DNA of 43,754 nucleotides, taken from IMG/VR virus record IMGVR_UViG_2778261353_000008; one strand, given 5' to 3'. Below are positions 1 through 38,922 of this stretch, one piece after another (the stretch's first letter is position 1; every line of letters starts with the position of its first letter). Origin of the DNA: a virus. Taxonomy: Duplodnaviria > Heunggongvirae > Uroviricota > Caudoviricetes. Below the pieces are notes generated by a model. The model had not been told where the DNA came from and did not search any database. It saw only the letters and a program-made list of their open reading frames with translations. Position numbers and translations under genes: made by a program.

Positions 1-1164
1 TTACGCCTTCTTTATATCCTCCATAATTCCAGAGTGGGACATATTTGGGACATTATCACCAAAAATGTCGTCTATTTTCCTCGCATGCTCTGTCAAATGA
101 TTAGGCGCAAGGTGAGCATACCTACGAACCATTTCTATGGACTCCCATCCGCCCATTTCCTGAAGCACTGATAATGGGACGCCTGACTGAATCAGCCAGC
201 TTGCCCAGGTGTGTCTGAGGTCATGGAAACGGAAATCTTCAATTCCTGCACGACGACAAGCTGATAGCCATGATGTCTTGCTGTCGATGCGCATCTTCCT
301 GACCGCAGGCGTTGATGTTCCATCTGCTCGCTTAGCCGCCTTGGTATGTACAAACACCCATTTGTGATGCTTGCCTATTTGATCACGCAACACTTTACAG
401 GCGGTATCGTTCAGCGCCACACCAATGGCGCGGTTTGATTTGCTCTCTTCTGGATTCACCCAGGCAACTCGTCGCTGCATGTCGATTTGTTGCCATTCCA
501 GATTTATGATGTTCGACTTTCTCAGACCAGTTGCCAGCGCAAACTTGACGACAGATTTCAGTGGTTCGGGGCACTCATCAATAAGGCGTTTTGCTTCCTC
601 CTTTTCCAGCCATCTGACTCGCTTGTTTCTGACCGCTGGTATCTTGATGACAGGCGCTTTTTCCAGCCACTTCCAGTCGCGTTCTGCAGCACGGAGAATG
701 GCCTTTATCATGGCAAGATGCTTTGCCTTTGTCTGAGTTGATACTGGCTTTGGTTCATAAACAGGCAGTTCTTTACCTTTCCTGATGGCGGCCTGAACTT
801 TCTGTTTCCATATTTCTTTCGTCTTTCTGTTATGCATTCTGCTTACAGCAGAGTAAATCTTTGCCTCCGAGATATCTTTAAGCCTTATACCCTCAAAATG
901 TTCAAGCCAGAACTCAATCCGGCTTTTATCTGAATCGAGAGATTTTTTATCAGCTTTTTCCTCAAGCCATCTTAGGCAGGCCTCTTCAAAAGTGACATCA
1001 GGTAAATCCCCTAGCTTTTCTACTCGCCAGAGTTCTGCTTTTCGCTTGTCGTGCAACTCCTGAGCTTGCCGCTTGTCCTTTGTGCCAAGAGATTCCTTAA
1101 TTCGTTTCCCGCCCGGGAGCGAATACGAGGCATACCATATTTCATTTCTGCGGAAGAGTGACAT
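1..1164 (-). CDS. int: Phage integrase, tyrosine recombinase (P22/lambdoid Int-like)
   Basis: 387-aa ORF; N-terminus [35 protein letters not shown] resembles P22-type Int; C-terminal catalytic region with R..HDLRHT..RRYAHL; first gene of the prophage arm, overlapped by xis. Confidence 0.93.
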
Positions 1165-1391
1165 TTTCTTTCCTCTGTTATGCCATCACCCGCGCTCACC
1201 TGGACAGTATGCAGCGGAGACTGAAGCGCCGCAATGCAGGCTTGCCGTGTTGTGAGGTAAGGAGATTTTGGCTTGGTTGGATCTTTACGTGTTGCCTGTA
1301 GGCGGCCTGTTCGTATCCAGTTGGTGGCGGTTGGTCTGGATATCTTAAGAAACTGACAGGCCTCATCGAGTGTGAGGCTGTATGATTCCAT
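1020..1391 (-). CDS. xis: Excisionase (P22 Xis-like)
   Basis: ORF 1020..1421 trimmed to internal Met ([38 protein letters not shown]...), which matches my recollection of P22 Xis; overlaps int start as in lambdoid phages. Confidence 0.8.
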
Positions 1392-1641
1392 GGTTACCTC
1401 TGCTTTTTGAACGCATGTCACGTAACTTCTTAATGTGTTCTGCCGTTTCGATCTCTTCTGCTATCCGATCTGCATCAGCTTTATTCACAGGTTCAAAGTC
1501 ATGATTAAAGCGGAACATGCTGGCGATACATGTTCTGCCTTTTCGGATGTAGTGAACTTTGTTGTGGGTAGAACGCAGGATTTTGCAGGGAGTGCCGTGG
1601 TGGTCGACGTACCAGGTGTTAGGAAAAATGATTCTGAACAT
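1363..1641 (-). CDS. Hypothetical early-left protein (92 aa)
   Basis: ORF with GAGGTG RBS 6-7 nt upstream of ATG; same strand and operon as xis; no family recognised. Confidence 0.5.
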   Translation of the reverse strand: MFRIIFPNTWYVDHHGTPCKILRSTHNKVHYIRKGRTCIASMFRFNHDFEPVNKADADRIAEEIETAEHIKKLRDMRSKSRGNHGIIQPHTR

Positions 1642-1688
1642 TTTTACACCTCAGTTGGACGATGTTGAAATTTGCTGCTTTGAGGCCA

Positions 1689-1907
1689 TCACAGTCCCCA
1701 TTGTTTGTTCTTAAGTTCGATCTCCTCCTGGCAACTTGCACAAGTCCGACAACCCTGAACAGCCAGGCGTCTTCGCTCATCTATCGGATCGCCACACTCA
1801 CAACAATGAGTTGCGGATACAGTCTGGTAGTTCTGACGACGCATTTTTATTGCTGTATTGCGCTGTAATTCTTCGATTTCTGATGCTGAATCAATGATGT
1901 CTGCCAT
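1689..1907 (-). CDS. TraR/DksA-family C4 zinc-finger protein (lambda Orf73-like)
   Basis: 72 aa with CxxC...CxxC (CCECGDPIDERRRLAVQGCRTCASC); this DNA stretch is nearly identical to the lambda sequence I recall between xis and exo. Confidence 0.8.
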   Translation of the reverse strand: MADIIDSASEIEELQRNTAIKMRRQNYQTVSATHCCECGDPIDERRRLAVQGCRTCASCQEEIELKNKQWGL

Positions 1908-2005
1908 CTTCCATTAATCCCTGAATTGTTGGTTAATACGCTTGAGGATGAATGCGAACAATAAAAAAGGAGCCTGTAGCTCCCTGATGATTTTGCTTTT
2001 CATGT

Positions 2006-2221
2006 TCACCGTTCCTTAAAGACGCCGTTTAACATGCCGATCGCCAGGCTTAAATGAGTCGGTGTGAATCCCATCAGCGTTACCGTTTCGCGGTGCTTCT
2101 TAAGTACGCTACGGCAAATGTCATCGACGTTTTTATCCGGAAACTGCTGTCTGGCTTTTTTGATTTCAGAATTAGCCTGACGGGCAATGCTGCGAAGGGC
2201 GTTTTCCTGCTGAGGTGTCAT
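2006..2221 (-). CDS. Lambda orf63-like small protein
   Basis: ORF 2006..2320 trimmed to internal Met MTPQQENALRSIARQANSEIKKARQQ...; DNA nearly identical to the lambda b-region sequence I recall. Confidence 0.6.
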   Translation of the reverse strand: MTPQQENALRSIARQANSEIKKARQQFPDKNVDDICRSVLKKHRETVTLMGFTPTHLSLAIGMLNGVFKER

Positions 2222-2301
2222 TGAACAAGTCCCATGTCGGCAAGCATAAGCACACAGAATATGAAGCCTGCTGCCAGAAAAATGCATTCCGTGGTTGTCA
2301 T
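2218..2301 (-). CDS. 27-aa hydrophobic peptide (MTTTECIFLAAGFIFCVLMLADMGLVQ), conserved with lambda
   Basis: Hand-translated; start overlaps methyltransferase stop (ATGA) and stop overlaps the orf63-like start (ATGA); below the 60-aa cut-off of the ORF track. Confidence 0.35.
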   Translation of the reverse strand: MTTTECIFLAAGFIFCVLMLADMGLVQ

Positions 2302-2855
2302 GCAGCTTCCCGACGGGCAAGAATCCTTGAGCCGAACGCCATCAACTCTCCACGATCAACGGTCGTAAAGTGGCAGTGTGTACGGGGGTATGGGTGCCAG
2401 ATAATGAGCATCGAGCCTTTATTATTTCCACTGACGGGTTTCTCAGTGAGTGGGTTAATAAATGCCAGTCGTCCTGCCGTGATGAATCTGACCTCACTGG
2501 CGGTTTGTATCGCTTCATGAAACCATCCGACAGATGTGTCAGCAGGCAATAACATTACACATCCCACACTACTGAATTTGTTTTCAGTGGCTGCCTTTTT
2601 CACAAAAGGGGAAATATTGCTGTATGGTGGATTCAACCAGACATAACCAGAGGCATATCCCATTGCTTCAGGCCATGAAGTGGTTAATGTGTTCTGCTCC
2701 TGTGAGATAAAAAGCCGACATAGTCGGTTTTTTTCGCTGGCGGCAGCATCAAGTTGAAAAACGAACTCTGCATTAAGCGCAGCAAAAATCTCTGGTGGTG
2801 TGCGCCAGCTGTCGCGATGTTCGGCAGGAGTATTGCTTCCGGTGAAATCAGTCAT
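2298..2855 (-). CDS. Phage DNA N6-adenine methyltransferase (Dam family), copy 1
   Basis: 185 aa; WRTPPEIF motif and NPPYS (DPPY-type catalytic motif), GNNKGSMLIIW; lies where lambda carries orf61 in the early-left operon. Confidence 0.8.
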   Translation of the reverse strand: MTDFTGSNTPAEHRDSWRTPPEIFAALNAEFVFQLDAAASEKNRLCRLFISQEQNTLTTSWPEAMGYASGYVWLNPPYSNISPFVKKAATENKFSSVGCVMLLPADTSVGWFHEAIQTASEVRFITAGRLAFINPLTEKPVSGNNKGSMLIIWHPYPRTHCHFTTVDRGELMAFGSRILARREAA

Positions 2856-3015
2856 ACAGCCCCCGTTTATTATTTATCGCCTCAGCCAGCCGCTGTGCTT
2901 TCAGTGGATTTCTGATAACAGAAAGGCCGGGAAATACCCAGCCTCGCTTTGTAACGGAGTAGATGAAAGTGATCGCGCCTACCCGGATATTATCGTGAGG
3001 ATGCTTCATCGCCAT
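2848..3015 (-). CDS. Lambda orf60a-like small protein (55 aa)
   Basis: Hand-translated [55 protein letters not shown]; matches the lambda orf60a N-terminus as I recall it but ends earlier where the methyltransferase begins. Confidence 0.4.
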
Positions 3016-3686
3016 TGCTCCCCAAATACAAAACCAATTTCAGCCAGTGCCACGTCCATTTTTTCGATGAACTCCGGCACCATCTCGTCAAAATTCGCCA
3101 TGTACTTTTCATTCCGCTCAATCACGACATAATGCAGGCCTTCACGCTTCATACGCGGGTCATAGTTGGCAAAGTACCAGGCATCTTTTCGCGTCACCCA
3201 CATGCTGTACTGCACCTGGGCCATGTAAGCCGATTTTATGGCCTCGAAACCACCGAGCCGGAACTTCATGAAATCCCGGGAGGTAAACGGGCATTTCAGT
3301 TCAAGGCCGTTGCCGTCACTGCATAAACCATCGGGAGAGCAGGCGGTGCGCATACTTTCGTCGCGATAGATGATCGGGGATTCAGTAACATTCACGCCGG
3401 AAGTGAATTCAAACAGGGTTCTGGCGTCGTTCTCGTACTGTTTTCCCCAGGCCAGCGCCTTAGCATTAACTTCCGGAGCCACACCGGTGCAAACCTCAGC
3501 CAGCAGGGTGTGGAAGTAGGACATTTTCATGTCAGGCCACTTTTTTCCGGAGCGGGGTTTTGCTATCACATTGTGAACTTCTGAAGCGGTGATGACGCCG
3601 AGCCGTAATTTGTGCCACGCATCATCCCCCTGTTCGACAGCTCTCACGTCGATTCCGGTACGCTGCAGGATAATGTCCGGTGTCAT
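3006..3686 (-). CDS. exo: Lambda exonuclease (Red alpha)
   Basis: 226 aa, essentially identical to lambda Exo ([43 protein letters not shown]...). Confidence 0.97.
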
Positions 3687-4468
3687 GCAGCCACCTTCTG
3701 CTCAGTGGCTTTCTGTTTCAGGAATCCAAGAGCTTTCACTGCTTCGGCCTGTGTCAGTTCTGACGATGCGCGAATGTCGCGGCGAAATATCTGGGAACAG
3801 AGCGGCAATAAGTCGTCATCCCATGTTTTATCCAGGGCAATCAGCAGAGTGTTAATCTCCTGCATGGTTTCATCGTTAACCGGAGTGATGTCGCGTTCCG
3901 GCTGACGTTCTGCAGTGTATGCGGTATTTTCGACAATGCGCTCGGCTTCATCCTTGTCATAGATACCAGCAAATCCGAAGGCCAGACGGGCACACTGAAT
4001 CATGGCTTTATGTCGTAACATCCGTTTGGGATGCGACTGCCACGGTCCGGTGATTTCTCTGCCTTCGCGGGTTTTGAATGGTTCGCGGCGGCATTCATCC
4101 ATCCACTCGGTAACGCAGATCGGATGATTGCGGTCCTTGCGGTAAATCCGGCATGTGCAGGATTCATTGTCCTGCTCAAAGTCCATACCATCAAACTGCT
4201 GGTTTTCATTGATGATGCGGGACCAGCCATCAACGCCCACCACCGGAACGATGCCATTCTGCTTATCAGGAAAGGCGTAAATTTCTTTCGTCCATGGATT
4301 AAGGCCGTACTGGTTGGCAACGATCAGTAATGCGATGAACTGCGCATCGCTGGCATCACCTTTAAATGCCGTCTGGCGAAGAGTGGTGATCAGTTCCTGT
4401 GGGTCGACAGAATCCATGCCGACACGTTCAGCCAGCTTCCCAGCCAGCGTTGCGAGTGCTGTACTCAT
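3683..4468 (-). CDS. bet: Recombination protein Bet (Red beta)
   Basis: 261 aa, matches lambda Bet ([59 protein letters not shown]...). Confidence 0.97.
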
Positions 4469-4473
4469 CCGTT

Positions 4474-4890
4474 TTATACCTCTGAATCAATATCAACCTG
4501 GTGGTGAGCAATGGTTTCAACCATGTACCGGATGTGTTCTGCCATGCGCTCCTGAAACTCAACATCGTCATCAAACGCACGGGTAATGGCTTTTTTGCTG
4601 GCCCCGTGGCGTTGTAAATGATCGATGCAGAGTGATTCAAACAGGTGCTGGGGCAGACCTTTTTCCATGTCGTCTGCCAGTTCTGCCTCTTTCTCTTCAC
4701 GGGCGATCTGCTGGTAGTGACGCGTCCAGCTCTGAGCCTCAAGACGATCCTGAATGTAATAAGCGTTCATGGCTGAACTCCTGAAATAGCTGTGAAAATA
4801 TCGCCCGCGAAATGCCGGGCTGATTAGGAAAACAGGAAAGGGGGTTAGTGAATGCTTTTGCTTGATCTCAGTTTCAGTATTAATATCCAT
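4474..4890 (-). CDS. gam: Host nuclease inhibitor Gam
   Basis: 138 aa, matches lambda Gam long form ([55 protein letters not shown]...). Confidence 0.96.
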
Positions 4891-4988
4891 TTTTTATAAG
4901 CGTCGACGGCCTCACGAAACATCTTTTCATCGCCAATAAAAGTGGCGATAGTGAATTTAGTCTGGATAGCCATAAGTGTTTGATCCAT
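4845..4988 (-). CDS. kil: Kil (FtsZ inhibitor), 47 aa
   Basis: ORF 4845..5114 trimmed to internal Met [47 protein letters not shown], matching lambda Kil. Confidence 0.85.
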
Positions 4989-5121
4989 TTTTTGGGACTC
5001 CTGGCTGATTAAGTATGTCGATAAGGCGTTTCCATCCGTCACGTAATTTACGGGTGATTCGTTCAAGTAAAGATTCGGAAGGGCAGCCAGCAACAGGCCA
5101 CCCTGCAATGGCATATTGCAT
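4957..5121 (-). CDS. cIII: CIII (FtsH inhibitor stabilising CII), 54 aa
   Basis: Hand-translated from reverse complement: [54 protein letters not shown]; overlaps kil as in lambda; absent from ORF track (<60 aa). Confidence 0.88.
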   Translation of the reverse strand: MQYAIAGWPVAGCPSESLLERITRKLRDGWKRLIDILNQPGVPKNGSNTYGYPD

Positions 5122-5193
5122 GGTGTGCTCCTTATTTATACATAACGAAAAACGCCTCGAGTGAAGCGTTATTGGTATGCGGTAACGCCGCGC

Positions 5194-5562
5194 TCAGGCG
5201 GCTTTGATAGTCATATCATCTGAATCAAATATTCCTGATGTATCGATATCGGTAATTCTTATTCCTTCGCTACCATCCATTGGAGGCCATCCTTCCTGAC
5301 CATTTCCATCATTCCAGTCGAACTCACACACAACACCATATGCATTTAAGTCGCTTGAAATTGCTATAAGCAGAGCATGTTGCGCCAGCATGATTAATAC
5401 AGCATTTAATACAGAGCCGTGTTTATTGAGTCGGTATTCAGAGTCTGACCAGAAATTATTAATCTGGTGAAGTTTTTCCTCTGTCATTACGTCATGGTCG
5501 ATTTCAATTTCTATTGATGCTTTCCAGTCGTAATCAATGATGTATTTTTTGATGTTTGACAT
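5194..5562 (-). CDS. ea10: Ea10-like early protein (122 aa)
   Basis: Length and position (between cIII and ral) match lambda ea10; flanking DNA matches lambda sequence I recall. Confidence 0.8.
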   Translation of the reverse strand: MSNIKKYIIDYDWKASIEIEIDHDVMTEEKLHQINNFWSDSEYRLNKHGSVLNAVLIMLAQHALLIAISSDLNAYGVVCEFDWNDGNGQEGWPPMDGSEGIRITDIDTSGIFDSDDMTIKAA

Positions 5563-5724
5563 CTGTTCATATCCTCATAGATAAAAAATCGCCCTCACAC
5601 TGGAGGGCAAAGAAGATTTCCAATAATCAGAACAAGTCGGCTCCTGTTTAGTTACGAGCGACATTGCTCCGTGTATTCACTCGTTGGAATGAATACACAG
5701 TGCAGTGTTTATTCTGTTGTTAGT

Positions 5725-5753
5725 GCCAAAAATAAAGGCCGACTATGCGGCCT
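5725..5753 (-). terminator. Putative rho-independent terminator downstream of the membrane-protein cassette
   Basis: Minus-strand RNA would form AGGCCG/CGGCCT stem (6 bp, 6-nt loop) followed by UUAUUUUUGG; sits immediately 3' of ORF 5758..6207. Confidence 0.5.
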
Positions 5754-5757
5754 GAAA

Positions 5758-6207
5758 TTACTTAACCAATGATGCTGCATATTCGATAAGGTAAAGCTTT
5801 GGAGCCAGCAAAATTTTTAACCATGTCATATTGGTTACTGCACTAATAATAAAAATCCCCCACAGAGCCAAAACTCCAACTAATGGCATGATAAGAAGAT
5901 TAATATCACCTTTGCTATCCCAAACCATTGTCGGCCTGTATTTGGGATTTCCCTTCTCCCATGAATATCCTTCATCACTGATTTTACCTGTCTCAACTCT
6001 TCGACACTGCTTCTTCATAAACCAGAAAACCAGTGGGATTGTTAGAATGGCTATTAATGTTTTAATCAGACTGTCAACCATATTCCATAGCAGCAACTGA
6101 TGAACAACATCAGGAATCTGCGCCTGGCTGAATGAAACAGCCGTGTCTATTCCATTGCTGGCTTTTTGCAGTAGTTCTACGAGAATCTTGTTTGCTTGTT
6201 CTTCCAT
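5758..6207 (-). CDS. Hypothetical integral membrane protein (149 aa), cassette inserted between ea10 and ral
   Basis: Two strongly hydrophobic segments (LIKTLIAILTIPLVFWFM and LLIMPLVGVLALWGIFIISAV); AAGGGG RBS upstream of ATG; AT-rich; absent from lambda at this junction. Confidence 0.65.
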   Translation of the reverse strand: MEEQANKILVELLQKASNGIDTAVSFSQAQIPDVVHQLLLWNMVDSLIKTLIAILTIPLVFWFMKKQCRRVETGKISDEGYSWEKGNPKYRPTMVWDSKGDINLLIMPLVGVLALWGIFIISAVTNMTWLKILLAPKLYLIEYAASLVK

Positions 6208-6266
6208 ATATCCCCTTGATTGTAATAAGCATGAAATTATTTACGGCCAAAAAATAAAGGCCACCA

Positions 6267-6467
6267 TCAGGCAGCCTTGTTGTTCTGTTTACCAAGTTCT
6301 CTGGCAATCATTGCCGTCGTTCGTATTGCCCATTTATCGACATATTTCCCATCTTCCATTACAGGAAACATTTCTTCAGACTTAACCATGCATTCCGATT
6401 GCAGCTTGCATCCATTGCATCGCTTGAATTGTCCACACCATTGATTTTTATCAATAGTCGTAGTCAT
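6267..6467 (-). CDS. ral: Restriction alleviation protein Ral
   Basis: 66 aa, matches lambda Ral (MTTTIDKNQWCGQFKRCNGCKLQSECMVK.EEMFPVMEDGKYVDKWAIRTTAMIARELGKQNNKAA). Confidence 0.95.
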   Translation of the reverse strand: MTTTIDKNQWCGQFKRCNGCKLQSECMVKSEEMFPVMEDGKYVDKWAIRTTAMIARELGKQNNKAA

Positions 6468-6595
6468 ACGGATAGTCCTGGTATTGTTCCATCACATCCT
6501 GAGGATGCTCTTCGAACTCTTCAAATTCTTCTTCCATATATCACCTCAAATAAGTGGTTTGCTGCCTAATTTTATTTTCTGGCGACCAACACAAG

Positions 6596-6868
6596 TCACC
6601 TTGCTGTCAGTTGTTTTGATTTCCTGTAGCCTGCCGCGTAAAGAGCTACATTTGGAAGACAAGTTGAGCCTTCATATTTTCTGGTCAACGTTGTCAGTGT
6701 TATTACTTCTGCTCTCATTGCTGGTTTGCGCTTGCATTGCAAGACCACTCGAGAGGGGGTTGGTCTGTGTAGCTTGTCGGAGCTAATCGCCTCCTGACTT
6801 TGCAGGTTTGCGCGACGAGCTCTACGACGAGAAGCTGAGGTGCCTTTAAATTCTGTTTTTCTGGACAT
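6596..6868 (-). CDS. N: Antitermination protein N (P22 gp24-like, non-lambda)
   Basis: ORF 6596..6952 trimmed to Met preceded by GGGAGG RBS; arginine-rich motif SASRRRARRA near N-terminus; C-terminus LPNVALYAAGYRKSKQLTAR resembles P22 gp24 C-terminus; sits between ral and pL. Confidence 0.8.
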   Translation of the reverse strand: MSRKTEFKGTSASRRRARRANLQSQEAISSDKLHRPTPSRVVLQCKRKPAMRAEVITLTTLTRKYEGSTCLPNVALYAAGYRKSKQLTAR

Positions 6869-6966
6869 AGATTCCTCCCGAATAAACTTTGGTGATGCAA
6901 TCTCGAAGCTCCTCCTGAGACGGTTGCTTCGGCATTGCATCCCACAGCTCATGTGGTTGGGTGATC

Positions 6967-7013
6967 TGGCTTTTCAGCCACGTAGTCGAGAGTTCGACGT
7001 TGTTTAAAGAGCC
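6967..7013 (-). promoter_or_regulatory. Putative nutL (boxA-like GGCUCUUUAA followed by boxB-like hairpin UGGCUGAAAAGCCA)
   Basis: Seen on reverse complement between pL candidate and N start; boxB loop GAAAA as in lambda; stem differs from nutR by compensatory changes (GGC/GCC vs CGC/GCG). Confidence 0.5.
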
Positions 7014-7051
7014 TGCCAGTCTGTTCCGTTTGGCTTCCAGCGTCCTGCTGA

Positions 7052-7087
7052 CGGTTAAATAGTACGATATGTACTTTATTGGGTCAA
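7052..7087 (-). promoter_or_regulatory. Putative pL with operator OL1
   Basis: On minus strand: -35 TTGACC, 17-nt spacer, -10 TACTAT; palindrome AGTACATATCGTACT (7061..7075) overlaps spacer and -10 and closely matches a site in the pR candidate. Confidence 0.5.
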
Positions 7088-7272
7088 TACGATTTGTTCT
7101 AAAATGGGGTGATTTTTTATAACACTTTGTATTTAATAGTGTTGTTTTTTAGCGTGGGTGTATCGCCTCGGCGATGTAAGGAGAGATCAGAATTGCGTGG
7201 TTTAGTGAGTTGTATCTATTTATTTTTCAATAAATACATTTGGTTATGTGTCTTTAGATGGGGGCGTGAGGC

Positions 7273-7300
7273 AAAGAAAACCCGGCGCTGAGGCCGGGTG
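7273..7300 (-). terminator. t_imm-like rho-independent terminator ending the cI operon
   Basis: CCCGGC..GCCGGG stem followed on the minus-strand RNA by UUUUCUUUG; surrounding ~120 nt match the lambda sequence I recall between OL and rexB. Confidence 0.6.
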
Positions 7301-7308
7301 GGGTTTTG

Positions 7309-7479
7309 TTATTGGTGCATTTGGCAGACTGTAGTATCAGGTCCATAAGCCAAAGTAAAAACAGGCTTGTTGATCAATCCGTTGTTCTTTAATGATTGAA
7401 TCATTTTACCTTGCTCGCTAACTTTTTGCTTGCTAAGTATTTCTGCCACTTGCTGTGTCAGTGATTTGTCTTTGCTCAT
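7309..7479 (-). CDS. Small ORF (56 aa) translationally coupled to the upstream peptidase-like gene
   Basis: Hand-translated MSKDKSLTQQVAEILSKQKVSEQGKMIQSLKNNGLINKPVFTLAYGPDTTVCQMHQ; its ATG directly follows the TAA of the 300-aa gene (TAAATG); ends 9 nt before the t_imm hairpin; below ORF-track cut-off. Confidence 0.45.
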   Translation of the reverse strand: MSKDKSLTQQVAEILSKQKVSEQGKMIQSLKNNGLINKPVFTLAYGPDTTVCQMHQ

Positions 7480-8382
7480 TTATGACTCACTTTGTTCTGA
7501 GAAGGGGAATGAAGACAGAACAAGAACCTGTCGATTTGTCTTATACATGTATTCATTAATGACGTTGTGCAGATTTTTTAACGCCATGCTAAAATCTTTG
7601 TCGTATGTAAAGTCTTCTACTTTAATTCTTAAGTCATTGATAAGAGTATTTATTCCTATCGTTCTTCCGTGAGAATGCCACTTTCCGTTGTCACTAAGAG
7701 CGGTAGCGATCATTTTAGCTCTCGCTTCTTTTTCCCTCTTGGAAACTAGCTTTCCTCGTTTTGTGTTACCTTGATGAACCGTCCACTCTCTGAATTTATA
7801 CTCTACAAGCCACTTCTTAAGCAAGTCTATTGATAGCTCTCTGGCTTGCTCGTATCTCCTTAAGTGCGCAAGATCTAACTGACTAAGCATCATTAGTTCA
7901 GCTTGGGTAATGGTTCCTTCTCTGGATTTAGTAATCATTTCTTCAACTTTATCAAGGTATCCCAAAGCAGGAACCCATTTACCGTCAGAGGATTGCACTT
8001 GAGGGTCAATGGGGCCTAATGAAGAAGCATAGTTCATGTAAATTTTATCTCCAGACATACACCATATTGTGCCTGCCGACATGGCCATATCTGGAATGAT
8101 AAAATATACCTCTTGATAGAAATGCCTTGTAATTTCTACCATTTTTTCCACAGACTCAACAGAGCCACCATTTGTATTGAGTATAATAACTAGAAATCTA
8201 TTGGTACGACTGTTAGCCATCTCCCCAATAGCCTCAAGTTTTGGTTGGTAAACTTCTTTTGACCATGGAAAGATACCACCGTAGTACGCTATGACGTCGC
8301 AGCTTGGGAAAAAGTTATTTTTAAATTGCTCTAACTGCCAAGAAATGTATGTTTCTAGTGTTGAATCAAGATTTTGGCTCAT
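7480..8382 (-). CDS. Clp-fold serine-peptidase-like protein (S49/SDH-family-like) in the rexAB slot
   Basis: 300 aa; motifs VIILNTNGGSVESVEKMVEI, IIPDMAMSAGT (putative Ser nucleophile), SSLGPIDPQ; immediately downstream of cI on the same strand; AT-rich; family assignment is from motif memory only. Confidence 0.6.
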   Translation of the reverse strand: MSQNLDSTLETYISWQLEQFKNNFFPSCDVIAYYGGIFPWSKEVYQPKLEAIGEMANSRTNRFLVIILNTNGGSVESVEKMVEITRHFYQEVYFIIPDMAMSAGTIWCMSGDKIYMNYASSLGPIDPQVQSSDGKWVPALGYLDKVEEMITKSREGTITQAELMMLSQLDLAHLRRYEQARELSIDLLKKWLVEYKFREWTVHQGNTKRGKLVSKREKEARAKMIATALSDNGKWHSHGRTIGINTLINDLRIKVEDFTYDKDFSMALKNLHNVINEYMYKTNRQVLVLSSFPFSEQSES

Positions 8383-8454
8383 GTGATACCTTGCTATATC
8401 AACAATTTACAATAACATGTTGCACTATCGGTTTTTTATTAATCACAATTGGAA

Positions 8455-9114
8455 TTACCCAAACGTCTCTTCAGGCCACTGACTAGCGATAACTTTCCCC
8501 ACAACGGAACAACTCTCATTGCATGGGATCATTGGGTATTGTGGGTTTAGTGGCTGTAGAAACACCTGACCGCTATCCCTGATCAGTTTCTTGAAGGTAA
8601 ATTCATCACCACCAAGTCTGGCTATGCAGAAATCGCCGGGCTCAACAGCTTGCTCAGGGTCAACCAGAATTAACATCCCGTCAGGAAAACTGGGTTTGGA
8701 ACCTGTTGGTGCGGTCATTGAGTTACCTTCAACCTCAAGCCAGAATGCAGAGTCACTGGCTTTTTTGGTTGTGCTTACCAATCTCTCCGCATCGCCTTTG
8801 GTAAAGGTTCTGAGTTCTGGAGAGAACATCCCAGCCTGAACATGAGAAAATACAGGGTACTCATATTGTTTTTTAACTGGGGCCGATGAGTATTCGCCAA
8901 CAGGTGAAAATGTCCCGTCGTGGTTGAATGATATGTTATCAATACCAAGGTATTTAAACACCAAACCAATATCACTAAGAGATGGATGACGAGATCCGCG
9001 CAACCAGTGTCCAATCCCACCCTGCGTCATACCTAGCTCTTCGGCTAACTTCTCTTGAGTTATGCCGAGCTCTTTCATTCTGGATCTAGCCAGTTCATAC
9101 CATTTCATTTTCAT
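8455..9114 (-). CDS. cI: CI-type prophage repressor (HTH-XRE N-terminus, LexA/S24-like C-terminal domain)
   Basis: ORF 8455..9156 trimmed to Met with AAGGA RBS ([37 protein letters not shown]...); C-terminal [13 protein letters not shown]...[23 protein letters not shown] resembles P22 C2 / lambda CI autocleavage domain; divergent from cro across an operator region. Confidence 0.88.
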
Positions 9115-9169
9115 GTCCTTATTATTACGCTCTGTACTGGAACCATCCATGCACAATGTGTATTTTTGC

Positions 9170-9198
9170 TTGTATTTGGAAAGTACATATTGTATTTT
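9170..9198 (+). promoter_or_regulatory. Putative pR with operator OR1
   Basis: -35 TTGTAT, 17-nt spacer, -10 TATTTT, GGAGG RBS and cro ATG ~27 nt downstream; operator AGTACATATTGTATT (9182..9196) nearly identical to the OL site. Confidence 0.5.
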
Positions 9199-9224
9199 TT
9201 ATTCGAGGTTACTATGGAGGGCAT

Positions 9225-9440
9225 ATGAGCAACCTACGAAAATATCGAGAGTCACTGAATATCTCTCAAACAACACTTGCTAAGGCAGTTGGATGCACAC
9301 AGGGAGCTATCGGACATTGGGAATCTGGTCGTCGCTTCCCAGACCTTAAAACATGCCGTGCTCTTGTTGCGTGCCTAAATAAGTTAGGCGCAAAAGTAAG
9401 TCTTGATGACGTGTTCCCGCCGGAACACAAAGCCGCTTAA
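9225..9440 (+). CDS. cro: Cro-like repressor (HTH-XRE), 71 aa
   Basis: ORF 9156..9440 trimmed to Met MSNLRKYRESLNISQTTLAKAVGCTQGAIGHWESGRRFPDLKTCRALVACLN... preceded by GGAGG; divergent from cI. Confidence 0.8.
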   Translation: MSNLRKYRESLNISQTTLAKAVGCTQGAIGHWESGRRFPDLKTCRALVACLNKLGAKVSLDDVFPPEHKAA

Positions 9441-9451
9441 TAAGCGGAGCC

Positions 9452-9497
9452 GCTCTTTGTAACAACGGACATTCGTCCTACGTCGCTGAAAAGCGAG
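9452..9497 (+). promoter_or_regulatory. Putative nutR (boxA CGCTCTTTG, boxB-like hairpin TCGCTGAAAAGCGA)
   Basis: Located between cro and cII; boxA matches the CGCTCTT(T)A consensus; boxB loop GAAAA as in lambda. Confidence 0.5.
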
Positions 9498-9581
9498 TCC
9501 CAAGATATCTGACCAACTAAGGCCATATGCGTTTCCACGCATACCTTTCAACTAACTATTCACTATTGGAAATCTTAAGAA

Positions 9582-9878
9582 ATGGAAAGAACAAGTTACA
9601 GCAAACTATCACAACGTGACGTTGATCGCGCAGAAACAGATTTACTTATCAATCTGTCAACTATTACCCAGCGCGGTCTGGCAAAGATGATTGGCTGTCA
9701 TGAATCGAAGATAAGCAGAACGGACTGGCGGTTTATTGCTTCGGTCTTGTGTGCTTTCGGAATGGCATCAGACATCAGTCCAATTAGCAGGGCTTTTAAG
9801 TATGCGCTTGATGGAATCACAAAAAAAAAATCCCCGGTGGCCGCCGGGGACTCTAAGCAAATTGATATGCAATTCTGA
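9582..9878 (+). CDS. cII: CII-like transcriptional activator
   Basis: 98 aa; HTH region (GLAKMIGCHESKISRTDWRF) and C-terminus KKKSPVAAGDSKQIDMQF parallel lambda CII (KKRPAATERSEQIQMEF). Confidence 0.75.
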   Translation: MERTSYSKLSQRDVDRAETDLLINLSTITQRGLAKMIGCHESKISRTDWRFIASVLCAFGMASDISPISRAFKYALDGITKKKSPVAAGDSKQIDMQF

Positions 9879-9910
9879 GGGAATTACTGGATCAATCCAC
9901 AGGAGTCATT

Positions 9911-10810
9911 ATGACAAATACAGCAAAAATACTCAACTTCGGCAGAGGTAACTTTTCCGGACAGGAGCGTAATGTGGCAGATCTCGATGATGGTTACGCC
10001 AGACTATCAAATATGCTGCTTGAGGCTTATTCGGGCGCAGATCTGACCAAGCGACAGTTTAAAGTGCTGCTTGCCATTCTGCGTAAAACCTATGGGTGGA
10101 ATAAACCAATGGACAGAATCACCGATTCTCAACTTAGCGAGATTACAAAGTTACCTGTCAAACGGTGCAATGAAGCCAAGTTAGAACTCGTCAGAATGAA
10201 TATTATCAAGCAGCAAGGCGGCATGTTTGGACCAAATAAAAACATCTCAGAATGGTGTATCCCTCAAAACGAGGGAAAATCCCCTAAAACGAGGGATAAA
10301 ACATCCCTCAAATTGGGGGATTGCTATCCCTCAAAACAGGGGGACACAAAAGACACTATTACAAAAGAAAAAAGAAAAGATTATTCGTCCGAGAATTCTG
10401 GCAAATCCTCTGACCAGCCAGAAAACGATCTTTCTGTGGTTAAACCGGATGCTGCAATTCAGAGCGGCAGCAAGTGGGGAACAGCAGAAGACCTGACCGC
10501 CGCAGAGTGGATGTTTGACATGGTGAAGACCATCGCGCCATCAGCCAGAAAACCGAATTTTGCTGGGTGGGCTAACGATATCCGCCTGATGCGTGAACGT
10601 GACGGACGTAACCACCGCGATATGTGTGTGCTTTTCCGCTGGGCCTGCCAGGACAACTTCTGGTCCGGTAACGTGCTGAGCCCGGCCAAACTCCGCGATA
10701 AGTGGACCCAACTCGAAATCAACCGTAACAAGCAACAGGCAGTCGTGACAGCCAGCAAACCAAAACTCGACCTGACAAACACAGACTGGATTTACGGGGT
10801 GGATCTATGA
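9911..10810 (+). CDS. O: Replication initiator O
   Basis: 299 aa, near-identical to lambda O (MTNTAKILNFGRGNF.GQERNVADLDDGYARLSNMLLEAYSGADLTKRQFKVLLAILRKTYGWNKPMDRITDSQL...). Confidence 0.97.
   Translation: MTNTAKILNFGRGNFSGQERNVADLDDGYARLSNMLLEAYSGADLTKRQFKVLLAILRKTYGWNKPMDRITDSQLSEITKLPVKRCNEAKLELVRMNIIKQQGGMFGPNKNISEWCIPQNEGKSPKTRDKTSLKLGDCYPSKQGDTKDTITKEKRKDYSSENSGKSSDQPENDLSVVKPDAAIQSGSKWGTAEDLTAAEWMFDMVKTIAPSARKPNFAGWANDIRLMRERDGRNHRDMCVLFRWACQDNFWSGNVLSPAKLRDKWTQLEINRNKQQAVVTASKPKLDLTNTDWIYGVDL
10258..10385 (+). repeat. ori-lambda: four iterons (TCCCTCAAAACGAGGGA-type) plus adjacent A/T-rich region, inside O
   Basis: Direct reading: ccctcaaaacgaggga / tcccctaaaacgaggga / tccctcaaattggggga / tccctcaaaacaggggga followed by aaaagaaaaaagaaaaga. 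Confidence 0.85.
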
Positions 10811-11508
10811 AAAACATCGCCGCACAGATGGTTAACTTTGACCGTGAGCAGATGCGTCGGATCGCCAACAACATGCCGGAACAGTACGACGAAAAGCCAC
10901 AGGTACAGCAGGTAGCGCAGATCATCAACGGTGTGTTCAGCCAGTTACTGGCAACTTTCCCGGCGAGTCTGGCTAACCGTGACCAGAACGAACTGAACGA
11001 AATCCGCCGCCAGTGGGTTCTGGCTTTCCGGGAAAACGGGATCACCACAATGGAACAGGTTAACGCAGGAATGCGCGTAGCCCGTCGGCAGAATCGACCA
11101 TTTCTGCCATCACCCGGGCAGTTTGTTGCATGGTGCCGGGAAGAAGCATCCGTTATCGCCGGACTGCCAAACGTCAGCGAGCTGGTTGATATGGTTTACG
11201 AGTATTGCCGGAAGCGAGGCCTGTATCCGGATGCGGAGTCTTATCCGTGGAAATCAAACGCGCACTACTGGCTGGTTACCAACCTGTATCAGAACATGCG
11301 GGCCAATGCGCTTACTGATGCGGAATTACGGCGCAAGGCTGCCGATGAACTGACCTGTATGACAGCGCGAATTAACCGTGGTGAGACGATACCTGAACCA
11401 GTAAAACAACTTCCTGTTATGGGCGGTAGACCTCTAAATCGTGCACAGGCTCTGGCGAAGATCGCAGAAATTAAAGCTAAGTTCGGACTGAAAGGAGCAA
11501 GTGTATGA
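10807..11508 (+). CDS. P: Replication protein P (DnaB helicase loader)
   Basis: 233 aa matching lambda P (MKNIAAQMVNFDREQMRRIANNMPEQYDEKPQVQQVAQIINGVFSQLLATFPASLANRDQNE...). Confidence 0.96.
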   Translation: MKNIAAQMVNFDREQMRRIANNMPEQYDEKPQVQQVAQIINGVFSQLLATFPASLANRDQNELNEIRRQWVLAFRENGITTMEQVNAGMRVARRQNRPFLPSPGQFVAWCREEASVIAGLPNVSELVDMVYEYCRKRGLYPDAESYPWKSNAHYWLVTNLYQNMRANALTDAELRRKAADELTCMTARINRGETIPEPVKQLPVMGGRPLNRAQALAKIAEIKAKFGLKGASV

Positions 11509-11795
11509 CGGGCAAAGAGGCAATTATTCATTACCTGGGGACGCATAATAGCTTCTGTGCGCCGGACGTTGCCGCGCTAACAGGCGCAACAGTAACCAGC
11601 ATAAATCAGGCCGCGGCTAAAATGGCACGGGCAGGTCTTCTGGTTATCGAAGGTAAGGTCTGGCGAACGGTGTATTACCGGTTTGCTACCAGGGAAGAAC
11701 GGGAAGGAAAGATGAGCACGAACCTGATTTTTAAGGAGTGTCGCCAGAGTGCCGCGATGAAACGGGTATTGGCGGTATATGGAGTTAAAAGATGA
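11505..11795 (+). CDS. ren: Ren (Rex exclusion-resistance protein)
   Basis: 96 aa matching lambda Ren (MTGKEAIIHYLGTHNSFCAPDVAALTGATVTSINQAAAKMARAGLLVIEGKVWRTVYYRFATREEREGKMST...). Confidence 0.93.
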   Translation: MTGKEAIIHYLGTHNSFCAPDVAALTGATVTSINQAAAKMARAGLLVIEGKVWRTVYYRFATREEREGKMSTNLIFKECRQSAAMKRVLAVYGVKR

Positions 11796-11820
11796 CCATC
11801 TACATTACTGAGCTAATAAC

Positions 11821-11853
11821 AGGCCTGCTGGTAATCGCAGGCCTTTTTATTTG
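11821..11853 (+). terminator. tR2-like rho-independent terminator between ren and ninB
   Basis: AGGCCTGC / GCAGGCCT stem, 8-nt loop, then TTTTTATTTG. Confidence 0.7.
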
Positions 11854-11868
11854 GGGGAGAGGGAAGTC

Positions 11869-12309
11869 ATGAAAAAACTAACCTTTGAAATTCGATCTCC
11901 AGCACATCAGCAAAACGCTATTCACGCAGTACAGCAAATCCTTCCAGACCCAACCAAACCAATCGTAGTAACCATTCAGGAACGCAACCGCAGCTTAGAC
12001 CAAAACAGGAAGCTATGGGCCTGCTTAGGTGACGTCTCTCGTCAGGTTGAATGGCATGGTCGCTGGCTGGATGCAGAAAGCTGGAAGTGTGTGTTTACCG
12101 CAGCATTAAAGCAGCAGGATGTTGTTCCTAACCTTGCCGGGAATGGCTTTGTGGTAATAGGCCAGTCAACCAGCAGGATGCGTGTAGGCGAATTTGCGGA
12201 GCTATTAGAGCTTATACAGGCATTCGGTACAGAGCGTGGCGTTAAGTGGTCAGACGAAGCGAGACTGGCTCTGGAGTGGAAAGCGAGATGGGGAGATCGG
12301 GCTGCATGA
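11869..12309 (+). CDS. ninB: NinB (Orf recombination mediator)
   Basis: ORF 11851..12309 trimmed to MKKLTFEIRSPAHQQNAIHAVQQILPDPTKPIVVTIQERNRSLDQNRKLWACLGD..., matching lambda NinB. Confidence 0.93.
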   Translation: MKKLTFEIRSPAHQQNAIHAVQQILPDPTKPIVVTIQERNRSLDQNRKLWACLGDVSRQVEWHGRWLDAESWKCVFTAALKQQDVVPNLAGNGFVVIGQSTSRMRVGEFAELLELIQAFGTERGVKWSDEARLALEWKARWGDRAA

Positions 12310-12833
12310 CTATCAAATCAAATACGCCAGCACACGACAAGGACTGCTGGCAAACGCCGCTTTGGCTTTTTGATGCACTGGATATTGAGTTTGGATTCTG
12401 GCTGGATTCGGCAGCGAGCGACAAAAATGCTCTGTGTGCTCACTGGCTAACTGAGGCCGACGACGCGCTCAATTCTGAGTGGGTAAGCCACGGTGCAATC
12501 TGGAATAACCCACCGTACAGCAATATCAGGCCGTGGGTGGAAAAAGCTGCTGAGCAGTGCATACAACAGCGACAGACGGTAGTTATGCTTGTGCCAGAGG
12601 ATATGTCAGTCGGATGGTTCAGCAAGGCTCTGGAGAGTGTCGACGAAGTTCGCATTATCACTGATGGACGGATTAATTTTATCGAACCATCGACAGGGCT
12701 GGAGAAGAAGGGAAACAGCAAAGGCTCCATGCTGCTGATTTGGCGACCGTTCATCAGTCCTCGACGGATGTTTACTACCGTATCCAAAGCGGCATTGATG
12801 GCGATCGGGCAGGGCGTCAGGAGGGCGGCATGA
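12306..12833 (+). CDS. Phage DNA N6-adenine methyltransferase (Dam family), copy 2
   Basis: ORF 12246..12833 trimmed to [25 protein letters not shown]...; NPPYS motif and [11 protein letters not shown]; start overlaps ninB stop (ATGA); occupies the lambda ninC/ninD slot. Confidence 0.8.
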
Positions 12834-13006
12834 GGCGACAGCGACGAAGTTTCACCGACATCATCTGCGAAAACTGCAAATACCTTCCAACGAAACGCTC
12901 CAGAAATAAACGCAAGCCAATCCCAAAAGAATCTGACGTAAAAACCTTCAATTACACAGCTCACCTGTGGGATATCCGGTGGCTAAGATATCGTGCGAGG
13001 AAATGA
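12830..13006 (+). CDS. ninE: NinE
   Basis: Internal Met of ORF 12740..13006: [58 protein letters not shown], matching lambda NinE; ATGA overlap with upstream gene. Confidence 0.85.
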
Positions 13007-13350
13007 CAATGGATTATTCACAGTTAAGTGATTTTGAAATTAACAGAATGGTAGGAGACATAATTTTTAAAGGCCTTTGGGCAAGTAAACCGGAAACATC
13101 AGGGAATAACACCAACAAATGGTATTACGGAAATGCTGATACAACTTTTGAGCCATTAAATCATTTGCCTGACTACTGCAATGATCCGAGCGCTTCATGG
13201 CCGATTATTGAGAAATACAGGATTTCTATCTTAGACCAGTTAACTGAATGGTGTGTGGATGCAAAAGGCGTAAGCCCAATATTTGATACCAGACCTCTCC
13301 GCGCCGCCATGATTGTCTTTCTCCTGATGCAGGAGGCCAATAATGCTTAG
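13003..13350 (+). CDS. Hypothetical nin-region protein (115 aa)
   Basis: Internal Met of ORF 12967..13350 ([26 protein letters not shown]...); ATGA overlap with ninE; family not recognised with confidence. Confidence 0.55.
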
Positions 13351-13537
13351 CCCATCTCAATCCCTTCAATACCTGAAAGGAAGCATAGAGCGGGCTTCAA
13401 TGTGCACAGAGTGGATTCTATCTAGGTTTAGCGCATACAGAAGATTGCCGGTAAAGGGCATGCCAAGCAAGTCGATGCTGCATATGCAAAAGAATGCGCG
13501 CTGGAAGGTATGGCGAGAACACAGGTTATCTGGCTGA
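13343..13537 (+). CDS. NinF-like small protein (N-terminus matches lambda NinF, remainder divergent)
   Basis: First 10 residues [10 protein letters not shown] equal lambda NinF; downstream sequence lacks the Cys pairs I recall in lambda NinF. Confidence 0.45.
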
Positions 13538-13556
13538 AAGAGGGGGTTATTAAGGC

Positions 13557-13919
13557 GTGAATACCTACAGCATCACATTACCCTGGCCTCCGAGCAATAA
13601 TCGCTATTACCGCCATAATCGCGGGCGCACGCACGTCAGCGCAGAGGGGCAGGCATACCGCGATAACGTCGCCCGAATCATTAAAAACGCAATGCTGGAT
13701 ATCGGCCTGACTATGCCTGTGAAAATCCGCATTGAGTGCCACATGCCGGATCGCCGTCGCCGTGACCTGGATAATCTGCAAAAAGCCGCTTTTGACGCAC
13801 TCACTAAAGCAGGTTTCTGGCTGGATGATGCTCAGGTCGTTGATTACCGCGTTGTGAAGATGCCTGTTACCAAAGGTGGGAGGCTGGAACTGACCATCAC
13901 CGAAATGGGGAATGAATGA
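13557..13919 (+). CDS. rusA: RusA-family Holliday junction resolvase
   Basis: 120 aa, GTG start; RusA-like sequence ([31 protein letters not shown]...[18 protein letters not shown]...[12 protein letters not shown]); occupies the slot of lambda ninG. Confidence 0.85.
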
Positions 13920-14056
13920 TGTTTGAGTTTAATATGGCAGAACTTCTTCGCCACCGCTGGGGGCGTCTGCGCTTATATCGTTTCCCCGGTTCTGTTTTGA
14001 CCGATTACCGAATACTGAAGAATTACGCCAAAACACTGACAGGAGCAGGAGTATGA
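13916..14056 (+). CDS. YlcG-like 46-aa protein
   Basis: Hand-translated [46 protein letters not shown]; start overlaps rusA stop; same size and rusA-to-Q position as DLP12 ylcG. Confidence 0.45.
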
Positions 14057-14141
14057 AGTCAGAGATAACAATCAACTAATACTGTTTTGTTGATTTTTGC
14101 TTGTAATTGGCGTTCTGGTCTGAGTTTTGTGGAGTAAGTTG

Positions 14142-14519
14142 ATGCGTGATATTCAGATGGTTCTTGAGCGTTGGGGAGCGTGGGCGGCTAATAATCATGA
14201 AGATGTGACCTGGTCGTCCATTGCCGCCGGTTTTAAGGGATTAATTCCTTCAAAAGTAAAATCTCGCCCACAATGTTGTGACGATGACGCGATGATCATT
14301 TGCGGGTGCATGGCCCGTCTGAAAAAGAACAACAGCGATTTGCATGATTTATTGGTGGACTATTATGTCGGCGGCATGACTTTTATGGCGCTTGCACGTA
14401 AGCATGGGCGATCTGATTGTTGGGTTGGCAGGATGCTTCAGAAAGCTGAGGGCGTAGTGGAGGGTATGCTGATGGTGTTGGATCTCCGATTGGAGATGGA
14501 TGCTGATTGTTCGAAATAA
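14142..14519 (+). CDS. Q: Late-gene antiterminator Q (non-lambda Q family, DLP12/phage-21-like size)
   Basis: ORF 14127..14519 trimmed to ATG after GGAG RBS ([31 protein letters not shown]...); 125 aa; positioned just upstream of a terminator and the lysis region. Confidence 0.75.
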
Positions 14520-14619
14520 TTAAAGGAAAAGTTGCTGTCTGATTGTCATTAGTCTAACATTTTAAATGTTGGAATCGCAACGTAGTTATTATCATATAAC
14601 AGCTTGTTTCCTGATTTAG

Positions 14620-14648
14620 CCAGCCTCCCCAAAGGCTGGTCTTTTTCT
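14620..14648 (+). terminator. tR'-like rho-independent terminator downstream of Q
   Basis: CCAGCCT / AGGCTGG stem with CCCCAA loop followed by TCTTTTTCT. Confidence 0.6.
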
Positions 14649-14674
14649 AATAAGTATTATTTCGGGTAGGGATT

Positions 14675-15199: not shown

Positions 15200-15391
15200 A
15201 ATAAATCCTGTACTTTTGATAGTTGAGAGTAAGTATGAAAGATAGATGATTACGACCGATCACTTAAAGAACTTTCATACTATATTAGGAATAGTCCATA
15301 ACAGAAAAATTGTCAGTGATGACGCCAGAAAGGCAATTTATTCCGTGCACTACACAGTTTATGTGTTAATGAATTAGTCAAGGGGGAGAAT

Positions 15392-18792: not shown

Positions 18793-18823
18793 AGCTGCCC
18801 ATATCGATGGGCAACTCATGCAA

Positions 18824-38855: not shown

Positions 38856-38874
38856 ATTTTATAACCCAGATACG

Positions 38875-38898: not shown

Positions 38899-38922
38899 AT
38901 TGCAGAAAAGCGAGAGGTAATT

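Follow-up and report, generated by a model that had tools for sequence, protein, structure and literature searches.

Small adenine methyltransferases of the phage 'Dam' family (Pfam PF05869) are encoded by phages of different types. M.Phi93DAM of the lactococcal phage Phi93 is GATC-specific, as demonstrated by SMRT sequencing and by DpnI/DpnII digestion after heterologous expression (PMC4190342). The DNA of phage T1 is methylated at GATC (PMC11447400). M.EcoVT2Dam of VT2-Sakai is listed as a GATC enzyme (PMC6602927); it is also listed as a Dam-like phage enzyme, and the HP1 Dam is listed as Dam-like as well (PMC7556043). The role of phage Dam enzymes has been described as still poorly understood (PMC7556043). 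Prophage methyltransferases are reported to be silent in lysogens (PMC4659465; PMC5778455).

Here we analyse a prophage that carries two members of this family, MT1 and MT2. The window, i.e., the whole stretch of DNA that was analysed, comprises 43,754 nucleotides (IMG/VR record IMGVR_UViG_2778261353_000008). The best explanation of the pair, to which we assign a probability of roughly 0.6, is that MT1 and MT2 are two isofunctional GATC methyltransferases from old lineages which were joined by module shuffling. The result would be a mosaic redundancy that supplies Dam activity in the delayed-early phase.

Two methyltransferase genes in opposite early operons

The first 14 kb of the window are 100% identical to the chromosome of the bovine E. 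coli UTAK-3 and of its sibling UTAK-18. A tRNA-Arg gene, fimZ and the integrase gene intD adjoin the prophage, and this is the DLP12 attachment site (argU). The remaining window carries lambda-type lysis, head and tail genes. Sequence and gene content identify the window as a lambdoid prophage of the DLP12 type, located at argU. The features which matter for the following are collected in Table 1.

Table 1. Features around the two methyltransferase genes; positions are those of the window.
Feature	Position	Strand	Remarks
Intrinsic-terminator-like hairpin with T-run, after the orf61 homologue	1967..1985	-	consensus match only
lambda orf61 homologue, kept downstream of MT1	2006..2287	-	
MT1, phage N6-adenine methyltransferase (PF05869/TIGR01712), 185 aa, WP_000129285.1	2298..2855	-	lambda orf63 slot, pL operon
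orf60a homologue (DUF1317; Pfam E 5e-32)	2848..3015	-	stop overlaps the MT1 ATG (ATGACTGA)
exo (Red recombination)	3006..3686	-	upstream of MT1, common leftward transcript
bet (Red recombination)	3683..4468	-	upstream of MT1, common leftward transcript
Probable N antiterminator, intact, arginine-rich motif (GTSASRRRARRANLQ)	6596..6868	-	motif only; required for transcription to read through to MT1 and MT2
tR2-like intrinsic terminator between ren and ninB	11821..11844	+	8-bp GC-rich stem and T-run; consensus match only
ninB (Orf recombination mediator)	11869..12309	+	stop overlaps the MT2 ATG
MT2, phage N6-adenine methyltransferase (PF05869/TIGR01712), 175 aa, WP_000153280.1	12306..12833	+	ninC/ninD slot, pR operon
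ninE	12830..13006	+	start overlaps the MT2 stop

Both proteins match PF05869 far above the cut-off of 28.1 bits (MT1, E 2.3e-56, 190.5 bits; MT2, E 6.4e-65, 218.4 bits), and in both the match spans profile positions 1-168 of 169. The NCBIfam equivalog TIGR01712 'phage_N6A_met' is matched with 165.6 bits by MT1 and 265.9 bits by MT2 (cut-off 97.05); PHROG 111 and the PADLOC models for orphan methyltransferases match both proteins as well. Both are already RefSeq entries named 'phage N-6-adenine-methyltransferase', and the family name is correct. They share the blocks W(R/Q)TP, NPPYSNI and GN(N/S)KGSML(I/L)IW, of which the second contains the catalytic motif IV, NPPYS, and their small size lies within the range of the family (about 140-240 aa). 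The canonical Dam domain PF02086 was not found in either protein in Pfam at E <= 0.01, nor was an MT-A70 match, the motif being NPPY and not DPPW. A sequence search of the PDB with MT1 and MT2 gave nothing significant.

When aligned against each other, MT1 and MT2 are 47% identical over 178 columns (BLASTP, E 2e-55), or 49% identical in a multi-enzyme alignment. At the DNA level a comparison of the two genes finds no similarity, the longest common word being 11 nt. Because they are unrelated at the DNA level, the two genes are old paralogues or alleles and did not arise by a recent duplication. The lack of nucleotide similarity also rules out a recent duplication, be it tandem or inverted, and recombination of one copy with the other.

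A preliminary description had recognized two divergent ORFs of one phage adenine-methyltransferase family, with a common architecture and placed in opposite early operons of one lambdoid prophage. Our analysis bears this out: MT1 is oriented leftward (pL) and MT2 rightward (pR), each in a lambda slot for accessory genes. The second copy was rightly said to replace ninC/ninD of the pR operon. In lambda the order is ninB - ninC - ninD - ninE, and MT2 sits between ninB and ninE and overlaps both. The slot of MT1 has to be corrected. It had been taken for that of orf61, yet an orf61 homologue is still present; the lambda order here is exo - orf60a - orf63 - orf61, and the slot is that of orf63 (DUF1382).

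The boundaries of the exchange are sharp. Alignments of the window to phage 2G7b and to VT2-Sakai run up to 2301-2303 and resume from 2853. Therefore, as read from the alignments, the coding body of MT1 is a precise cassette with boundaries exactly at the start and stop codons. It takes the place of about 185 bp coding for the orf63 homologue, and the homologues of orf61 and orf60a are retained. Among the best 60 complete E. coli genomes matching positions 2298-12833, all matches except those of UTAK-3 and UTAK-18 begin at or just past the ATG of MT1. The MT1 start is the first start codon downstream of an upstream stop. The mechanical ORF of MT2 reaches back to a GTG at 12246; we place the start at the ATG at 12306 because the TIGR01712 profile begins at its residue 2 and because this ATG overlaps the ninB stop.

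Both genes are orphans. MT1 has the DUF1317 protein and the orf61 homologue as neighbours, MT2 has NinB and NinE, and neither has a restriction endonuclease gene adjacent to it. The overlap of the orf60a stop with the MT1 ATG suggests that MT1 is translationally coupled as the last member of the gam-bet-exo-orf60a string. Since a tR2-like terminator precedes ninB, expression of MT2 would depend on N antitermination. We infer that MT1 and MT2 are N-dependent delayed-early genes on opposite arms, each behind terminators. Promoters and terminators were called by consensus match only. On the respective coding strand the promoter scan gave no site upstream of MT1 or MT2. An independent 'moron' with its own promoter was considered and dropped, because the scan gave no excess over shuffled sequence. 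The preliminary description had also suggested a different timing of the two enzymes. No large difference is expected because both genes follow terminators in N-dependent delayed-early transcripts.

The state of the prophage deserves attention. RefSeq annotates as pseudogenes a frameshifted nohD (small terminase), a frameshifted cII, a lom with an internal stop, and a xis, a DUF1364 gene and a tail-fibre assembly gene that are each partial. Because of the several pseudogenes the UTAK-3 element may be defective, or the assembly may contain indel errors, and expression of MT1 and MT2 in UTAK-3 is possibly moot. One could go further and regard both genes as passengers of a decaying prophage, intact only through recent acquisition and devoid of a function in this strain. 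The pseudogenes and partial genes would agree with this, as would the DLP12 remnant of E. coli B / BL21, in which the MT1 gene has decayed. Against it, neither ORF is shortened and each is identical to a widespread allele, selection on the MT1 clade is strongly purifying (see below), and some of the frameshifts could be assembly errors. Further, such a reading covers this copy alone and not what the genes do. We consider it very improbable.

Target and activity of the two enzymes

MT2 is identical in 175 of 175 residues to orf32 of VT2-Sakai, the sole methyltransferase annotated in that phage. Going by this annotation orf32 should be M.EcoVT2Dam, and MT2, being identical to it, would methylate GATC.

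For MT1 the argument is comparative. T1 gene ST20 (E 1.7e-70), HP1 Dam (E 7e-75) and M.Phi93DAM (E 6e-34) all match PF05869. The identity of MT1 to MT2, HP1 Dam, T1 Dam and M.Phi93DAM is 49, 40, 46 and 39%, respectively, and those four are 34-37% identical among themselves. In this set of five enzymes MT1 is, in terms of aligned sequence, the most central member and not an outlier. It keeps 23 of the 23 columns which are invariant in the other four enzymes; for MT2 the corresponding figure is 23 of 25. Because MT1 retains every invariant column and is central among GATC enzymes, GATC is the parsimonious assignment, and with its GATC-methylating relatives as a guide the specificity of MT1 is most probably GATC. 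The identity of 47% between MT1 and MT2 is, by itself, low enough for a changed or relaxed target of MT1.

The preliminary description had proposed different target specificities. This proposal now fares poorly: none of the residues invariant in four GATC enzymes is changed in MT1, and MT2 is identical to what should be the VT2-Sakai enzyme listed for GATC. In its elaborated form the proposal says that MT1 with a different or relaxed target complements the GATC enzyme MT2, such that the prophage is guarded against more restriction systems. The two enzymes are only 47-49% identical, and the stretch directly preceding NPPY has neither the same length nor the same sequence in the two. The MT1 clade forms a group of its own that is conserved across Enterobacteriaceae and keeps a fixed position, and phage adenine methyltransferases of relaxed specificity are known in other families (PMC3299994; PMC5778455). 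All this would be compatible with a complementary pair. The four GATC enzymes, however, are only 34-37% identical mutually, and MT1 has all residues that remain invariant among them; indeed, MT1 is closer to each GATC enzyme than MT2 is. Non-specific enzymes known so far are of the alpha and beta classes and carry DPPY and FxGxG, two motifs that are absent from the MT1 and MT2 sequences. A complementary pair therefore appears unlikely, and the distribution of the two genes, discussed below, is a further point against it.

Neither enzyme looks inactive, another outcome which the preliminary description had envisaged. The family invariants are kept, and dN/dS values argue for selection on the MT1 protein. 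In comparisons of MT1 with homologues of 70-84% identity dN is 0.10-0.22 and dS is saturated; dN/dS is <=0.06 where it is computable. Because of this strong purifying selection one can conclude that the MT1 clade encodes a functional protein. MT1 and MT2, as members of the small phage 'Dam' family (HP1/T1/VT2 type, NPPY), would then be active N6-adenine DNA methyltransferases that depend on SAM and have a single domain.

An AlphaFold2 model of MT1, computed from 35 sequences (both window proteins and homologue matches), has a pLDDT of 87.7 and a pTM of 0.85. It consists of one Rossmann-type domain and has no separate target-recognition domain. Among solved folds the best match is the catalytic domain of PCIF1/CAPAM, a cap-specific RNA adenosine methyltransferase (E 5e-5, TM 0.55). 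Weaker matches are the tRNA methyltransferase TrmM, followed by MmeI, KsgA and E. coli Dam. The E. coli Dam structures give weak partial matches (E >= 0.014, TM about 0.3), and those of METTL3-14 are marginal (E > 0.1).

The ranking of PCIF1/CAPAM and TrmM ahead of DNA methyltransferases raises the question whether MT1 acts on RNA instead of DNA, possibly with a partner protein. There is a precedent, a prophage 'DNA adenine methyltransferase' which prefers 16S rRNA in complex with its partner PNB-2 (PMC10810198), and the small DUF1317 protein to which MT1 is coupled could be seen as such a partner. The precedent, however, belongs to another family, MT-A70 with DPPW, and the fold matches are weak, at 12-19% identity. 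DUF1317 also occurs in lambda and in VT2-Sakai without any methyltransferase beside it, and members of PF05869 methylate GATC in DNA in vivo. An RNA target of MT1 is hardly to be expected. For the MT1-like genes of mEp021 and of Erwinia phages, a literature search turned up no functional data.

Distribution of the two lineages and origin of the pair

MT1 DNA is present in 312 of 5426 complete E. coli genomes (about 6%), in 244 at full length and always on the chromosome; the 312 include E. coli B / BL21(DE3), where the gene is a pseudogene in the DLP12 remnant. MT2 is found in 1566 of the 5426 genomes at 2193 places, often in multiple copies per genome. The MT1 clade (65-100% identity) extends across Klebsiella, Enterobacter, Citrobacter and other Enterobacteriaceae. 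In every sampled genome and listed phage, MT2 is located in the interval from ninB to ninE. The MT1 clade, for its part, holds to a position and a sequence of its own in several genera, and a distinct role could be the reason.

The two genes are almost never found together. A tblastn search with MT1 in 50,697 phage records matched 1812 places in 1811 records, i.e., a single record contains two family members. PhiR30_1, the only phage with an identical MT1, has no second family copy. We collected 90 MT1-bearing loci from NCBI, ENA and IMG/VR, 59 of them with all 10 kb of flank present on the relevant side; MT2 is also present at only two of these 59 (L011 and L065). Among the best 60 genome matches only UTAK-3 and UTAK-18 carry both genes. 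These figures rest on samples and are not a census of the 5426 genomes. As a rough background, the 2193 places of MT2 may be set against about 11,700 places which match the 14-kb early region, a rate several-fold above 2 in 59. We claim no p-value for the co-occurrence, since the samples depend on one another and the comparison is confounded by linkage to the replication module. Most MT1 prophages have an immunity-replication module of the YdaS/YdaT type and a post-P region without Dam. L011 has a different, lambda-type immunity region; hence the combination of MT1 and MT2 arose, or was reshuffled, more than once.

The small phage Dam family thus comprises two positionally fixed and nearly mutually exclusive lambdoid lineages, which occupy the end of the Red operon and the nin region, respectively. 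A pair selected for complementary functions is predicted to co-occur, contrary to what is seen. The near-absence of co-occurrence therefore fits interchangeable alleles better than a complementary pair.

The favoured reading, two isofunctional GATC enzymes united by module shuffling, can be spelled out as follows. The MT1 lineage would have its home where the Red (gam-bet-exo) part of the pL operon ends, and the MT2 lineage in the ninB-ninE interval of the pR operon. Through modular recombination a left arm of the DLP12 type would have been combined with a nin region of the lambda/Stx type, giving a prophage with both genes. The pair would accordingly be neither a duplication nor a selected two-enzyme system. 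In the lysogen both genes would be silent, and N-dependent transcription would set in after induction or infection. Host Dam is limiting, such that the DNA of a fast-replicating phage is under-methylated and exposed to methylation-sensitive GATC nucleases and to MutH. Additional Dam activity could bring such DNA to full methylation, and full methylation of GATC may then protect it from both.

The position of MT1 invites another thought. Of 74 close relatives, 70 have an exo gene within 600 nt upstream of their MT1-type gene, and Exo or Bet homologues are likewise encoded upstream in the majority of the more distant relatives. MT1 might then be a helper of Red recombination: by over-methylating GATC during lytic growth it would blind MutH and so keep mismatch repair from cutting under-methylated phage DNA or from aborting the Bet/Exo recombination of diverged sequences. 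This would be compatible with GATC specificity, and MT2 beside ninB/rusA could act likewise. The presumed translational coupling of MT1 at the end of gam-bet-exo-orf60a speaks for it. So does the composition of the prophage. GATC is depleted to 110 observed versus 195 expected sites (observed/expected 0.56), the second strongest depletion among the 4-bp palindromes after that of CTAG. Deschavanne and Radman reportedly proposed in 1991 that mismatch repair counter-selects GATC in enterobacteriophages, and the depletion in this prophage matches their proposal. Moreover, co-expression of Dam with lambda Beta raises allelic replacement to near the levels of mismatch-repair-deficient strains (PMC4770203).

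The linkage to exo may, however, be plain co-inheritance of a module, since most early genes of lambdoid phages serve recombination or replication. Family members in T1 and HP1 sit away from recombinases, and many lambdoid phages with Red, including lambda itself, have no methyltransferase in the MT1 slot. A role of MT1 as a helper of Red is, in our view, quite improbable. Taken more broadly, the claim that the MT1 lineage is not a redundant Dam, and is either a dedicated accessory of the Red operon which blinds mismatch repair or a non-GATC enzyme, is rather unlikely. If it were true, the rare prophages with both lineages would hold two functionally distinct methyltransferases. Should MT1 indeed differ in its target or serve recombination, it would be nature's equivalent of the engineered 'Dam plus Beta' approach, and would bear on the question why phages of dam+ hosts carry a Dam of their own. 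The Red-linked left-arm lineage to which this applies is found in about 6% of complete E. coli genomes and has left a remnant in BL21.

Comparison with known systems

Canonical Dam of E. coli and T4 (alpha class, PF02086) differs from MT1 and MT2 in that an N-terminal FxGxG and a C-terminal DPPY flank a target-recognition domain; these elements are lacking in the two prophage enzymes. Two further groups were considered as relatives and dropped. Hia5 and M.EcoGI/GII are not PF05869 relatives but enzymes of the alpha and beta classes, respectively, with DPPY and FxGxG (PMC3299994; PMC5778455). They have about 280-350 aa and a central target-recognition domain, whereas MT1 and MT2 are half that size and have NPPY. 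M.EcoGV, called a 'Dam homolog' of Stx prophages, was dropped as an MT1-like protein since it is an MT-A70/DPPW enzyme.

The closest likeness of MT2 is M.EcoVT2Dam, the nin-region Dam of Stx and other lambdoid phages; taken as orf32 of VT2-Sakai, it has the same sequence, position and family. The same enzyme is 49% identical to MT1, which lies in the opposite operon. T1 Dam (ST20) and HP1 Dam (orf13) share with MT1 the Pfam family, the NPPY motif and the small single-domain size; depending on the alignment MT1 is 44-46% identical to the former and 36-40% to the latter. They differ in that they come from other phage types and other genomic contexts than MT1 and MT2, and T1 Dam possesses an N-terminal extension of 45 residues and an internal insertion. 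M.Phi93DAM of the 936-type phage Phi93 is a PF05869 enzyme in which no motif other than NPPY can be recognised, and it gives protection against DpnII (PMC4190342). It has 140 aa, lacks the C-terminal part and is 39% identical to MT1, and its gene is located in the packaging module of a virulent Gram-positive phage.

DLP12 of E. coli B / BL21(DE3) has the argU/intD site and the left arm in common with the UTAK-3 prophage. Its MT1 gene is a 5'-truncated pseudogene, 98.4% identical over nucleotides 188-558. This DLP12 is heavily deleted, with the methyltransferase gene fused to a ren remnant, and has no nin-region Dam.

Stx2 prophages provide a precedent for an orphan adenine methyltransferase in each arm, as in O111 Phi14 with an M.EcoGV homologue and M.EcoVT2Dam (PMC6602927). 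The left-arm MT-A70 enzyme of Stx prophages (M.EcoGV / M.EcoPA8orf6770P) targets 16S rRNA together with PNB-2 (PMC10810198). The Stx2 pair is thus drawn from different families, MT-A70/DPPW and PF05869/NPPY, whereas in UTAK-3 both enzymes are from PF05869. The presence of two PF05869 enzymes in one prophage is unusual, but it is not conceptually new: the pairing is a rare yet ordinary product of phage module shuffling which brought together two known genes.

Relatives and fold of MT1

When the predicted structure of the 185-aa phage N6-adenine methyltransferase MT1 (AlphaFold2 model mab49c06dcf87) is compared with solved folds, the best match (E 5e-5, TM 0.55) is to PCIF1/CAPAM, cap-specific adenosine methyltransferases that act on RNA in eukaryotes; these outrank every DNA methyltransferase among the fold matches. 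The PHROG profile search shows that MT1 also matches phrog_33262, a 'phosphoadenosine phosphosulfate reductase' profile, at positions 302-415 of 495 (E 4e-7). The same annotation is attached to lambda NinC, the protein whose slot is occupied in this prophage by MT2, the second enzyme of the family. In view of these profile relations, some phages may encode NinC-like/Dam fusion proteins.

Several homologues of the MT1 clade from Enterobacter and related hosts are 253-284 aa long (P0050, P0060, P0068, P0069, P0072 and P0087), and all six also match PF00145, the C5-cytosine methyltransferase family. The extra length and the additional match suggest that these are either fusions or products of mis-called starts beside a Dcm-like fragment.

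GATC content and accessory genes

GATC is strongly depleted in the whole window, which contains 110 sites where a second-order Markov model predicts 195 (O/E 0.56); only CTAG lies lower, at an O/E of 0.41. GATC-free runs extend up to 1.98 kb, e.g., 4982..6963. Further, the pL operon carries a Ral-family antirestriction gene; thus, type I restriction alleviation and two Dam-type methyltransferases are joined in a single prophage.

The position of rexAB in lambda is taken here by a 300-aa serine proteinase and a 56-aa ORF. Neither matched any of the PADLOC defence models; the pair could constitute superinfection-exclusion or defence cargo. Another group of accessory genes has Q on one side and the genes for lysis and packaging on the other, and includes iss, the increased serum survival lipoprotein gene, a homologue of bor.

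Accessory and damaged genes of the prophage
Feature	Position in window	Strand	Location or state
Ral-family antirestriction gene	6267..6467	-	pL operon
300-aa 'SDH family Clp fold serine proteinase', then 56-aa ORF	7309..8382	-	between cI-like repressor and N
cII	about 9500-9900		frameshifted per RefSeq
Lipocalin-family protein, YbgA-family protein, HTH protein, iss	about 14100-19200		late region
nohD, small terminase gene	about 20060-20600		frameshifted per RefSeq
lom	about 38840-39440		internal stop per RefSeq

Integrity of the prophage and its relation to DLP12

The 14,000-base query (window 1-14000) pairs with 14,001 bases of the aligned database record L001. Considered jointly with the lesions in cII, nohD and lom, this length difference of one base points to a defective prophage or to homopolymer errors in the assembly.

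In E. coli B strains the cryptic prophage DLP12 harbors a 5'-truncated MT1 pseudogene, e.g., in BL21(DE3) (NZ_CP053602.1 537503-537871), which a deletion has fused to a remnant of ren, adjoining emrE. Therefore, the prophage in the window is a largely intact relative of DLP12.
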